A DNA stretch of 64,000 nt. Origin: a virus. Each line of letters begins with the position of its first letter. Position 1 is the first letter of the stretch. The stretch lies in UHGV virus genome UHGV-0057547; one strand, written 5' to 3'. The notes beneath the pieces are model-generated. The model was not told the DNA's origin and did no database searches. It saw only the letters and a program-made list of their open reading frames with translations. Below are positions 13,151 through 13,558 of this stretch, in pieces. The translations under genes were made by a program, and so were the position numbers.

Positions 13151-13279
13151 CTAATTGATAAGTAATAAAAGAAATCCCCCTAATATCATCGCAATGCCTA
13201 ATATTAGTTGACCACACATTAAATCTATTATTCCTATAACTATATCAGCACAACCTATAACAATCCAAAATTTATCCAC
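13151..13279 (-). CDS. small hydrophobic peptide (42 aa, GTG start), paralog 1 of 3: (M)DKFWIVIGCADIVIGIIDLMCGQLILGIAMILGGFLLLLIN
   Basis: Hand-translated; absent from the ORF track (below 60 aa). GGGAG RBS-like sequence upstream of GTG. Shared core GIIDLM.G.I.LGIAM.L.GF.LL across the three paralogs. Confidence 0.45.
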   Translation of the reverse strand: MDKFWIVIGCADIVIGIIDLMCGQLILGIAMILGGFLLLLIN

Positions 13280-13283
13280 TTTA

Positions 13284-13418
13284 TCACTCCCATTTAACAA
13301 ACAATAAATAAAATCCTGTTAATAACATTGCAATACCCATCATTATTTCACCATTCATTAAATCTATTATTCCTACAAGTATGTCACATATACCTACAAC
13401 CCTACAAACCTTATTCAT
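13284..13418 (-). CDS. small hydrophobic peptide (44 aa), paralog 2: MNKVCRVVGICDILVGIIDLMNGEIMMGIAMLLTGFYLLFVKWE
   Basis: ATG start, in tandem with its neighbours; conserved core with paralogs 1 and 3. Confidence 0.5.
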   Translation of the reverse strand: MNKVCRVVGICDILVGIIDLMNGEIMMGIAMLLTGFYLLFVKWE

Positions 13419-13429
13419 TTTATACTCTC

Positions 13430-13558
13430 CTATTCAATGACTTTTAAAAGAAATCCTAATATTATCATTCCCATACCTAATAGTATTTCGCCACACATTA
13501 ACTCTATTATTCCTATTCCTATATCTATACCAGCTATAATAAGGATAGTTTTATCCAT
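13430..13558 (-). CDS. small hydrophobic peptide (42 aa), paralog 3: MDKTILIIAGIDIGIGIIELMCGEILLGMGMIILGFLLKVIE
   Basis: ATG start; first of three tandem paralogs downstream of gene 13572..14096. Confidence 0.5.
   Translation of the reverse strand: MDKTILIIAGIDIGIGIIELMCGEILLGMGMIILGFLLKVIE

Follow-up and report, generated by a model that had tools for sequence, protein, structure and literature searches.

The window analysed here comprises 64,000 nucleotides of an uncultured gut phage of ~200 kb (UHGV virus genome UHGV-0057547) and harbours a trio of paralogous genes, pepA, pepB and pepC, arranged back to back on the minus strand. The gene pepA (13430..13558) encodes a peptide of 42 aa (MDKTILIIAGIDIGIGIIELMCGEILLGMGMIILGFLLKVIE), starts with ATG and is preceded by an SD motif (AAGGAGG) overlapping the stop codon of the upstream DUF1599 gene. 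The product of pepB (13284..13418) comprises 44 aa (MNKVCRVVGICDILVGIIDLMNGEIMMGIAMLLTGFYLLFVKWE; ATG start, SD motif GGAGAG) and that of pepC (13151..13279) 42 aa ((M)DKFWIVIGCADIVIGIIDLMCGQLILGIAMILGGFLLLLIN; GTG start), the SD motif of the latter (GGGAG) being located within the last codons of pepB. Spacers ahead of pepA, pepB and pepC measure 13, 11 and 4 nt, respectively. The peptides are pairwise 40–55 % identical with 15 invariant columns, and the paralogues share 62–73 % DNA identity (codons 2–41). A preceding sequence-only reading of this DNA had proposed small paralogous genes for hydrophobic proteins below the usual ORF thresholds, and their existence, coordinates, lengths (42, 44 and 42 aa) and conserved core motif were borne out. 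In the program-made ORF list, pepC is extended to a TTG codon at 13300; the GTG start and its SD motif are identical in all pepC orthologues, and the gene is frequently missed by gene callers. A fusion of the three ORFs by read-through or frameshifting was discarded: each ORF possesses its own SD motif and start codon, and the starts are 140 and 139 nt apart, placing all three in different frames.

The three genes are the last of a four-gene transcription unit headed by the DUF1599 gene (13572..14096, minus strand; 174 aa). The C-terminal domain of the DUF1599 protein matches PF07659 (nucleotide modification associated domain 1; 28.2 bits, cut-off 25), while its N-terminal half is weakly SH3-like (SH3_15, sub-threshold). 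The unit promoter (14114..14157, minus strand) consists of a −35 box TTTACT (14155..14150) and a −10 box TATAAT (14132..14127) separated by a 17-nt spacer; the distance to the DUF1599 gene start downstream is 18 nt, and a terminator-like hairpin (14181..14152) that comes after DnaB overlaps with the promoter. Its −10 box is contained in a conserved phage promoter motif (TAGTATAATATAAGTAAATGAG; 14135..14114, minus strand), of which 26 copies, all on the minus strand, were detected in the window (0.05 expected by chance). The unit ends with an intrinsic terminator (13106..13130, minus strand) composed of a 10-bp stem, a 5-nt loop and a U-run; with −19.8 kcal/mol (z = −4.0; 0 of 200 shuffles fold equally well) it is as strong as the earlier reading had assumed. 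It is kept in the closest relatives and absent where another gene directly follows the peptide genes. The promoter of the next unit (13007..13050, minus strand; TTTACT-17-TATAAT plus the conserved motif) marks the downstream boundary. Overall, the peptide unit is located inside the replication module. A Pfam scan restricted to 23 large ORFs within ~10–13 kb on either side (10 of them without match) identified DnaB, a Toprim protein, a RecJ-like DHH protein, a split DnaE, NT5C, an FtsH-like protease and an amylase-family protein as neighbours. The large genes of the window all share one strand, and the phage is AT-rich with a Clostridia-type replisome.

In total, 82 copies of the family were found in 33 related loci, representing 30 distinct DNA sequences. 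The reading frame is open in all 82, an SD motif is present in 81 and an ATG or GTG start in 80; copy lengths range from 123 to 135 nt, so that indels occurred in-frame only. Not a single stop codon was encountered across at least 343 nucleotide changes along a minimum spanning tree of the copies, whereas ~5 % of random substitutions would create one. The search for homologous small ORFs in related phages, which the sequence-only reading had recommended, thus returned intact copies throughout, and no frame-disrupting difference of the kind that it regarded as contrary evidence. Summed diversity is lowest at codon position 2 (6.9), compared with 12.5 at position 1 and 9.4 at position 3. Among 109 substitution types recorded at non-polar positions, 8 introduce a polar residue, as compared to ~21 % of random non-synonymous pepA changes. 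A family profile search retrieved 54 protein clusters with E-values down to 1e-20. Judged from these sequence patterns, pepA, pepB and pepC are real genes, and the hydrophobicity of their products and the Gly/Asp core are under purifying selection.

The arrays hold one to three copies in shuffled order, hybrids occur and extra copies reside at other intergenic sites; in four loci (L023–L026), family members are found after NT5C and after a gene for a 126-aa protein. At least one copy is kept at every related locus; since copy number varies down to one, no particular trio is required. The pepA slot represents a divergence hotspot, differing by 13 % between genomes with flanks more than 99 % identical. 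The earlier suggestion of a diversifying function finds its counterpart in copy-number variation, chimeras and this hotspot. Values of omega are 0.8–1.0 among paralogues vs 0.02–0.3 for neighbouring genes, and 0.31–0.37 for a more diverged pair (the first copy of L007 vs pepC); orthologues differ mostly by non-synonymous changes. Relaxed constraint would likewise yield an omega near 1. Between the window and L001, dS amounts to 0 for pepA and pepB and to 0.42 for the adjoining DUF1599 gene. Constraint at the DNA level, considered on account of the 2.6 % synonymous-free divergence of this pair, was rejected as sliding identity revealed a recombination block: a stretch of 92–100 % identity covers the 3' half of the DUF1599 gene, which encodes the DUF1599 domain, as well as pepA and pepB, whereas identity drops to ~77 % in the 5' half of this gene. 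The low dS of pepA and pepB is accordingly due to a mosaic block of recent exchange that also includes the 3' half of the DUF1599 gene.

The family is phage-only, its members being restricted to a single clade of uncultured phages. All family matches fall on phage-like metagenomic contigs; records of 218 contigs contain the exact pepB protein, which is indexed in 405 blocks of the contig collection, and only 11 family representatives are present among 1.8 billion protein clusters. A database cluster containing the exact pepA sequence was set aside as a mis-clustering with an unrelated 48-aa peptide family. No family member was detected in 185,579 bacterial and archaeal species genomes (one genome each), and tblastn of pepB yielded no match in 50,697 records of isolated phages, to which low-complexity filtering may contribute. 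Searches of the region with blastn matched FtsH-like segments only, and an Rfam scan gave no relevant match. Scans of the three peptides against Pfam (additionally with 25 family members), PHROGs, NCBIfam and PADLOC produced sub-threshold matches only (DUF308, Cg6151-P, DUF3040, DUF7533 and a GPGG-motif protein), which are probably compositional; no defence component in PADLOC matched the three peptides or the DUF1599 protein. A sequence-profile search of the PDB found no match, and Foldseek against the PDB returned only generic helical hairpins (E > 1). Foldseek against BFVD revealed one plausible family member, a 43-aa uncharacterised protein (39 % identity, E 0.1), next to noise. Literature searches did not find the family described.

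AlphaFold2 models of pepA (helices 3–21 and 25–41; pLDDT 90.9) and pepB (helices 3–21 and 25–40; pLDDT 91.9) show two short helices joined via a 3-residue turn, and the peptides probably fold as two-helix membrane hairpins rather than the single transmembrane helix assumed before; for a hydrophobic peptide of 42 residues and a shallow alignment of 25 sequences, a hairpin may be the default outcome of the prediction. The helices are short (17–19 residues), and the turn has the sequence C/N-G-E/Q. In the set of 88 unique family peptides, no substitution occurs at G16 or G28, 86 members keep G35 and L38, and 81 keep D12; in the model, Asp12 is placed mid-helix. Conservation along helix 2 has a periodicity of 3.4 residues, and the summed apparent insertion energy of this helix is below 0 (residues 23–41: ≤0). 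Helix 1 scores at +3 to +6 kcal/mol owing to D12 and D/E19, which lie on one helical face together with G9, G16 and G23; being only marginally hydrophobic, it could lie at the membrane interface rather than span the membrane. Overall, the peptides have a GRAVY of 1.2–1.9 and a net charge of −1 to −3, and their C-termini read KVIE, VKWE and LLIN.

The reading favoured here, with middling confidence, is that pepA, pepB and pepC are translated accessory genes whose likeliest role is a dispensable, membrane-directed early function. Host RNA polymerase would transcribe a short unit in the replication region in which the DUF1599 gene comes first and the peptide genes form the last three cistrons, and the spacers of only 4–13 nt mean that translation may be coupled. 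Each product would be inserted in the cytoplasmic membrane of the host, its two short helices forming a hairpin with the N and C termini toward the cytoplasm and the acidic turn (D/E19, G23, E/Q24) outward. The small residues G16, G28 and G35 would form a helix–helix packing face, Asp12 would come to lie near mid-membrane and the remaining positions would face lipid, drifting freely among I, L, V, M and F. Such hairpins may self-associate or mix, the buried carboxylate perturbing ion permeability, or may alternatively bind a membrane protein of the host; in either case, the host would be taken over or competing phages excluded, the latter also a suggestion of the sequence-only reading. The early timing is deduced solely from the resemblance of the promoter to the sigma-A consensus, and host takeover or superinfection exclusion is a best guess from context, other membrane roles fitting equally. 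In a more elaborate and quite improbable version, the 42–44-aa peptides would be phage-specific minimal two-helix proteolipids which, alone or as A/B/C mixtures, assemble via their Gly faces into rings with a ring of Asp12 in the membrane and cause a viroporin-like leak of cations or protons. Recombining alleles (the pepA hotspot) would then set the specificity of exclusion between competing gut phages, possibly with a link to DUF1599.

Alternatively, the peptides might serve the co-transcribed DUF1599 protein as membrane partners or anchors, tethering a function in nucleotide metabolism or replication. Proteins p16.7 and p1 of phage phi29 provide an analogy for membrane tethering of replication functions. 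Both partners share one promoter–terminator unit and the block of 92–100 % identity. A DUF1599 homologue (73–100 % identical) directly precedes the peptide genes in all of L001–L011, the same arrangement appears in the gene calls of L012–L022, L034–L037 and L039, and the adjacency is kept across three different genome architectures, including contigs in which the partner is a bare 93-aa DUF1599 domain encoded ~3.5 kb upstream of a terminase gene. Anchoring is nevertheless unlikely. None of nine diverse DUF1599-containing phages checked (Clostridium, Lactobacillus, crAss-like, Paenibacillus, Streptococcus, Brochothrix and Lactococcus phages) carries a small hydrophobic ORF after the DUF1599 gene, so that the pairing is a clade-specific cassette. 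The peptide-adjacent DUF1599 domains are ~89 % identical, for which reason adjacency may reflect one recently shared cassette; the copies of L023–L026 follow NT5C and the 126-aa gene instead, and the peptides lack a soluble domain for docking. Anchoring in trans of the neighbouring FtsH-like protease, itself devoid of TM segments, was likewise rejected as leading idea because two of the three genome architectures lack this neighbour.

It is distinctly unlikely that the peptide genes are largely functionless, tolerated ORFs of a short hydrophobic cassette that spreads via duplication and recombination, with selection acting only against harmful (polar or truncated) variants. The paralogue omega of ~0.8–1.0, the mostly non-synonymous orthologue differences and the hybrids, dispersed copies and copy numbers down to one are consistent with such a cassette. 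Against it stand the absence of stops and frameshifts over at least 343 substitutions, the retention of SD motifs in 81 of 82 copies and of start codons in about as many, the conservation of Gly/Asp positions with helical periodicity, the presence of at least one copy at every related locus and the omega of 0.31–0.37 for the first L007 copy vs pepC.

A role as holin, pinholin or antiholin-like proteins timing lysis, akin to the holin or antiholin modulators of the sequence-only reading, is very unlikely. Small size, hydrophobicity and two predicted helices are shared with such phage proteins, and paralogues could in principle act as effector and inhibitor. The products of 42–44 aa, however, lack a hydrophilic or charged C-terminal tail, with the helix reaching to within 1–4 residues of the C-terminus; they are encoded among replication genes and share the consensus sigma-A-type promoter of these, a Pfam lysis-enzyme domain was found in none of the 23 large neighbouring ORFs scanned (~10–13 kb; 10 ORFs without any Pfam match), and the genes vary in number from one to three and in position.

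It is highly improbable that these are type I toxin-like membrane peptides (as suggested earlier) restrained by an antisense RNA. The small hydrophobic peptides with strong SD motifs would suit this role, and type I toxins are common in prophages of Clostridioides difficile (PMC7699646). The positively charged, Lys-rich C-terminal tail listed as characteristic (PMC7699646) is, however, missing from these anionic peptides, and signs of an antisense RNA gene were not detected: plus-strand promoter-like sites number 11 vs 12.9 in shuffles (from a consensus scan, which may miss an antisense RNA), none is followed by a plus-strand terminator, and Rfam gave no match. Given the absence of the family from the bacterial and archaeal species genomes, prophages included, a role in prophage maintenance has no substrate. 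The bacteriocin-like function likewise considered before was dropped: the peptides are anionic, a leader is absent because the hydrophobic helix begins at residue 3–4, and the neighbours are replication genes, with no genes for a transporter or immunity. A repeat element acting at the DNA level (e.g., iterons or an origin beside DnaB) in place of genes has negligible likelihood: three direct repeats of ~139 bp near the helicase gene and the dS of 0 for pepA and pepB vs 0.42 for the DUF1599 gene would agree with it, but the low dS is explained by mosaic exchange, frames, SD motifs and starts are kept, codon position 2 is the most conserved and copies also occur singly or elsewhere.

As a small, fast-changing, phage-only family, the pep genes are interesting, not extraordinary. 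Small membrane proteins are routinely lost in phage annotation, for which the often uncalled pepC provides an example, and the exact pepB protein in 218 contigs places the family in a widespread gut phage. The unit offers a well-bounded experimental case (one promoter, the DUF1599 gene, three genes for predicted hairpins, one terminator) with a natural allele series and copy-number variants already available. Should the peptides depolarise the membrane, block superinfection or address a host membrane target, the phage toolkit would gain an effector of very small size that is easy to synthesise, and a first functional handle on the DUF1599 cassette would be available; should they lack a phenotype, they would exemplify how hydrophobic mini-ORFs persist and spread in phage genomes.

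Helix–turn–helix membrane hairpins with Gly-rich packing faces and a membrane-buried carboxylate are known from the c-subunit of F/V-ATPases and from Pmp3/YqaE (~52–80 aa). The models of the shorter pep peptides resemble these in the predicted hairpin, Gly faces and carboxylate; no sequence or profile similarity to the c-subunit or Pmp3 was detected, and oligomerisation and ion binding of the pep peptides would be speculation by analogy. Weak recurring profile matches relate to Gly-rich hydrophobic helix pairs in DUF308 (PF03729, HdeD-type repeat; best score 13.6 bits with pepB, E 0.08, vs a threshold of 25; 6 of 25 family members at E ≤1) and NF040511 (NCBIfam GPGG-motif small membrane protein; 15.2 and 12.6 bits vs a cut-off of 33, the pep turn not being GPGG); this similarity is most likely compositional. 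Closer to the proposed role are the exclusion proteins Imm and Sp of phage T4 and lactococcal Sie2009 (~80–170 aa), which are early, small, membrane-embedded, dispensable and variable. The pep peptides, non-homologous to these, are likewise small and variable, presumably dispensable and predicted to be membrane-embedded, with early expression suggested by the promoter. The type I toxins of C. difficile prophages (CD0977.1, CD0956.2) are also hydrophobic, comprise 34–53 aa, have a consensus RBS and belong to Clostridia phages, but they are prophage-borne, paired with a convergent antisense RNA and built from one N-terminal hydrophobic helix plus a lysine-rich tail (PMC7699646); the pep peptides, in contrast, have two predicted helices, are anionic, lack a detectable antisense gene and are absent from bacterial genomes. 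The genes 37–60 of Bacillus phage SPO1, including that of the cell-division inhibitor gp56, are accessory short genes in short operons as are the pep genes, and share with the pep unit strong sigma-A-type promoters and strong ribosome-binding sites (PMC6873191). The SPO1 takeover proteins differ in being larger, mostly soluble and dissimilar in sequence, and their genes form a terminal takeover module, while the pep genes reside inside the replication module. Expressed on their own, several SPO1 host takeover products are toxic to the host (PMC6873191). The pep unit combines features of early accessory proteins for takeover or superinfection exclusion: small size, the TTTACT-17-TATAAT promoter, an SD motif in nearly every copy, one to three copies per array and a variable pepA.

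Three tandem genes on the minus strand, pepA (13558..13430; ATG start, 42 aa, MDKTILIIAGIDIGIGIIELMCGEILLGMGMIILGFLLKVIE), pepB (13418..13284; ATG start, 44 aa, MNKVCRVVGICDILVGIIDLMNGEIMMGIAMLLTGFYLLFVKWE) and pepC (13279..13151; GTG start, 42 aa, MDKFWIVIGCADIVIGIIDLMCGQLILGIAMILGGFLLLLIN), are each preceded by a Shine-Dalgarno (SD)-like site (AAGGAGG, GGAGAG and GGGAG, respectively). Spacers of 13, 11 and 4 nt result in a repeat unit (SD plus ORF) of ~139–140 nt. The peptides are mutually 40–55 % identical with 15 invariant columns, at a DNA identity of 62–73 % (codons 2–41). 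Directly 3' of pepC, a terminator (13130..13106, minus) with a 10-bp stem and U-run was detected (−19.8 kcal/mol, z = −4.0; no equally good fold in 200 shuffles). Re-reading of the sequence confirmed the coordinates, lengths, core motif and terminator proposed by the sequence-only reading.

Related loci were gathered from IMG/VR, metagenome contigs and exact-protein look-ups; screening their six-frame ORFs with a family HMM retrieved 82 copies in 33 loci (window included), comprising 30 distinct DNA sequences. Frame-breaking differences among relatives were looked for and not found: all 82 copies are open, 80 start with ATG or GTG and 81 possess an SD motif, while the gene length range of 123–135 nt implies in-frame indels only. 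A minimum spanning tree of the distinct sequences requires 343 or more nucleotide changes, none of which creates a stop codon; of random single-base changes in these genes, ~5 % would do so. Summed pairwise diversity at codon positions 1, 2 and 3 amounts to 12.5, 6.9 and 9.4, and is thus lowest at position 2, which sets hydrophobicity. A polar residue is introduced by 8 of the 109 substitution types recorded at non-polar positions; for random non-synonymous changes in pepA the share would be ~21 %. These patterns indicate protein-coding genes selected for an intact hydrophobic product, and the earlier proposal of real paralogous genes for small hydrophobic peptides thereby stands.

The same proposal assumed a single transmembrane helix, which is not the best description. 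AlphaFold2, run with a 25-sequence family alignment, predicted a hairpin of two short helices joined by an acidic turn for pepA (helix 3–21, turn 22–24, helix 25–41; pLDDT 90.9) and pepB (helices 3–21 and 25–40; pLDDT 91.9). By a simple biological hydrophobicity sum, residues 25–41 form a good membrane helix (apparent insertion energy −1 to −4 kcal/mol) and residues 4–21 a marginal one (+3 to +6), the latter due to Asp12 and Asp/Glu19, which share one helical face with Gly9, Gly16 and Gly23. Gly16 and Gly28 are present in all of 88 unique family peptides, Gly35 and Leu38 in 86 and Asp12 in 81; elsewhere, I, L, V, M and F replace one another freely. In helix 2 the conserved positions (28, 31, 35 and 38) are spaced with a period of 3.4 residues, as is typical of a helix-helix packing face. 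Net charge is −1 to −3 and a basic tail is absent. Lys3/Arg6 and the C-terminal Lys make it likely that both termini are cytoplasmic. Caveats to the model are the shallow alignment, the shortness of the helices (17–19 residues) and a possibly interfacial helix 1.

Transcription of the array appears to be governed by a motif of 22 nt, TAGTATAATATAAGTAAATAAG, which occurs 26 times in the window, exclusively on the minus strand (0.05 expected; up to 3 mismatches), including 2568–2589, 9445–9466, 13007–13028, 14114–14135, 17675–17696, 27464–27485 and 45505–45526. It is usually preceded by TTGACTTTTAATAA at consensus spacing, and most copies have TTGACT upstream at 17-nt spacing, so that each of these constitutes a complete consensus −35/−10 promoter; a conserved initial transcribed sequence is also present. 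The promoter often directly follows a terminator hairpin, dividing the region into many short transcription units. One copy (14157..14114, minus; −35 TTTACT) lies just upstream of the DUF1599 gene (14096..13572, minus; 174 aa) and the next (13050..13007, minus) just downstream of the pepABC terminator; these flanking copies delimit a unit of promoter, DUF1599 gene, pepA, pepB, pepC and terminator. The consensus promoter suggests that this unit would be transcribed early by host RNA polymerase. Between two promoter copies, just upstream of the FtsH-like gene, a 28-aa ORF (MITEIIVYLNKIKFSENCLTFNKIFSII; 12890–12976, minus) with a double SD (AAGGAGAGATTAAGGAGG) was found, within which the second promoter (12922..12881) falls; it could be a leader peptide or a chance ORF. 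A second tandem pair of paralogous hydrophobic ORFs, unrelated to pepABC (30 aa each, MLQTLGMIIAIVLCAICLFIFILAVTDLFK and MLQILGAIVVSALCVGCLFMFAVSVAEIFR; 22184–22276 and 22291–22383, minus; SD site on each), shares the pepABC layout: it closes a unit at the 3' end, and a terminator hairpin and then the next conserved promoter come after it.

GC content is ~25 %. The surrounding minus-strand region encodes mainly replication and nucleotide metabolism functions: DnaB helicase, a Toprim protein, a RecJ-like DHH protein, NT5C deoxynucleotidase and a split DnaE (4986–6668 and 3032–4564, ~420 nt apart), one ORF with PHP and the pol III alpha core, the second with the finger domain and HHH; an intron, an intein remnant or a genuine split may underlie this arrangement. 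An FtsH-like protease (10995–12854; 619 aa, AAA+ plus peptidase M41) lacks any obvious transmembrane segment within the N-terminal 190 residues, has an acidic linker (DEDDEDDEDD) and also matches PADLOC IetA models (E 7e-31). The 5' end of an alpha-amylase-family gene (19595–20686, minus; catalytic domain E 4e-52) overlaps a 473-aa ORF (20646–22067, minus), in which weak similarity to a treble-clef zinc finger and to an I-HmuI NUMOD-like domain stayed below threshold. Eight RAGATH-18 RNAs (Rfam RF03064; 57–69 bits, gathering score 44.9) were detected on the minus strand (17556–17621, 30983–31047, 37317–37379, 41362–41424, 41694–41759, 45407–45471, 50865–50927 and 55164–55227), most of them ~55–115 nt downstream of a promoter copy. 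A 51-aa ORF (MAILIWSILFAIGCCLIATEKGRSTVAWLLLGFFFGFFALLVIVCLPDKNK; 48159–48314, minus) with an SD site and two predicted hydrophobic segments has no significant family match. The nearest cultured relatives by DnaB are the large Clostridioides difficile phages LIBA2945 and phiCD211 (31–36 % identity); as primase, RecJ and DnaE come straight after the helicase in LIBA2945, the DUF1599-peptide unit and the FtsH-like gene represent insertions relative to that layout.

The sequence-only reading had also proposed diversification, which is borne out by changes in copy number (one, two or three), shuffled order (B-type then A-type in locus L033; C-like, B, C in L007), hybrid copies (e.g. the single copy of L009–L011; database proteins P0005 and P0043) and a variable pepA slot. 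In the ~200-kb lineage, pepB and pepC are near-invariant (identical DNA in 17 and 16 loci, respectively) and pepA has at least 7 alleles. Between the window and L003 or L007, flanks are 99–100 % identical and the pepA slot differs by at least 13 %, with residues resembling other paralogues, which marks it as a recombination or gene-conversion hotspot. In the comparison with L001, identity within the DUF1599 gene is ~77 % in the 5' half and rises to 92–100 % over the 3' half, pepA and pepB, homology ending exactly where pepB ends; this stretch is a mosaic block, which accounts for its near-zero dS without any function at the DNA level. Omega (dN/dS, Nei-Gojobori) is 0.8–1.0 among the three paralogues and 0.31–0.37 for a more diverged pair (first copy of L007 and pepC), compared to 0.02–0.3 for DUF1599, DnaB, FtsH and the 127-aa neighbour; orthologue differences in the pep genes are mostly non-synonymous. 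Free hydrophobic swaps on the lipid-facing surface together with exchange between copies can largely explain the high values. In L023–L026, family members occur at other sites, with two copies behind NT5C and a third behind a gene of 126 aa; the window's NT5C-p127 gap, where these loci carry hairpin-peptide genes, holds a promoter and one RAGATH-18 RNA. The terminator does not belong to a conserved unit: some relatives, forming one group, have another gene starting within 5–15 nt of the peptide genes.

A profile built from the three peptides matched 54 protein clusters, all metagenomic and mostly of 42–44 aa, several from contigs of 170–270 kb. Searching 1.84 billion cluster representatives exhaustively with HMMER yielded only 11 family matches; the family is real yet very narrow. 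No member was found in 185,579 bacterial and archaeal species (one genome each) or in 50,697 phage records. The exact pepB protein is on record for 218 contigs and indexed in 405 contig-collection blocks (contigs up to ~210 kb); record names show a Hadza gut metagenome assembly and a wastewater metagenome among the sources. The best structural match in BFVD, a 43-aa uncharacterised protein of an uncultured siphovirus (39 % identity, E 0.1), is probably a family member. The database 90 %-identity cluster with exact pepA has an unrelated 48-aa representative (MILLGFGIVQVGLSLKSHDPSQRANGF...) and one member labelled 'glutamyl-tRNA amidotransferase', an artefact of clustering and annotating very short proteins.

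Overall, the earlier interpretation held with respect to real, paralogous, diversifying genes for small hydrophobic peptides, and failed on topology and, by their defining features, on three of its four analogies. At roughly even confidence, we regard pepABC as accessory proteins of an uncultured gut phage that are probably made early and form membrane hairpins, and favour a host-membrane-directed role in takeover or exclusion; any specific activity is put forward with much less confidence. The conserved Gly/Asp face would serve packing or partner binding, and the array expands, contracts and recombines.

A functional partnership with the DUF1599 protein is possible and is not the leading explanation. 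The C-terminal DUF1599 domain (nucleotide modification associated domain 1) of the window protein scores 28.2 bits (cut-off 25), its N-terminal half being weakly SH3-like. The divergent members P0056 and P0059 also directly follow a DUF1599 gene (domains ~89 % identical to the window's; in one case a bare 93-aa domain), on contigs of different architecture with a terminase gene ~3.5 kb downstream, and none of nine other DUF1599-bearing phages has a small hydrophobic ORF after this gene. The pairing hence seems to be a single cassette that the peptide-bearing contigs have in common rather than a feature of DUF1599 genes at large. Some close relatives have a longer DUF1599 gene ahead of the peptides (263 aa; L004 3389–4180, L020 2056–2847), whose product aligns to two places with the window protein (52 % and 78 % identity), suggesting an internal duplication.

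Location, small size, the lack of a charged C-terminus and a promoter in common with replication genes all speak against a holin-like function; none of the 23 large ORFs scanned within ~10–13 kb of pepABC carries a Pfam lysis-enzyme domain (10 without any Pfam match). Type I toxins of C. difficile prophages, which contribute to prophage maintenance, pair a hydrophobic N-terminus with a Lys-rich tail and have a convergent antisense RNA (PMC7699646). In contrast, the tail of pepABC is anionic and the family is absent from the bacterial genomes searched; at pepABC, no excess of plus-strand promoter-like sites, no plus-strand terminator downstream of such sites and no Rfam match were detected. The bacteriocin analogy fails for these anionic peptides, which have neither a leader nor export or immunity genes.

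Profile matches to DUF308, Cg6151-P, DUF3040, DUF7533 and a GPGG-motif small membrane protein remained far below cut-offs, PADLOC gave no match for pepABC, and homology to small phage exclusion proteins or to c-subunit or Pmp3-type proteolipids was not detectable. The former offer an analogy, and a Gly-packed hairpin with a buried carboxylate recalls the architecture of the latter. pepABC represent a new family of a broad, already known type of phage gene.
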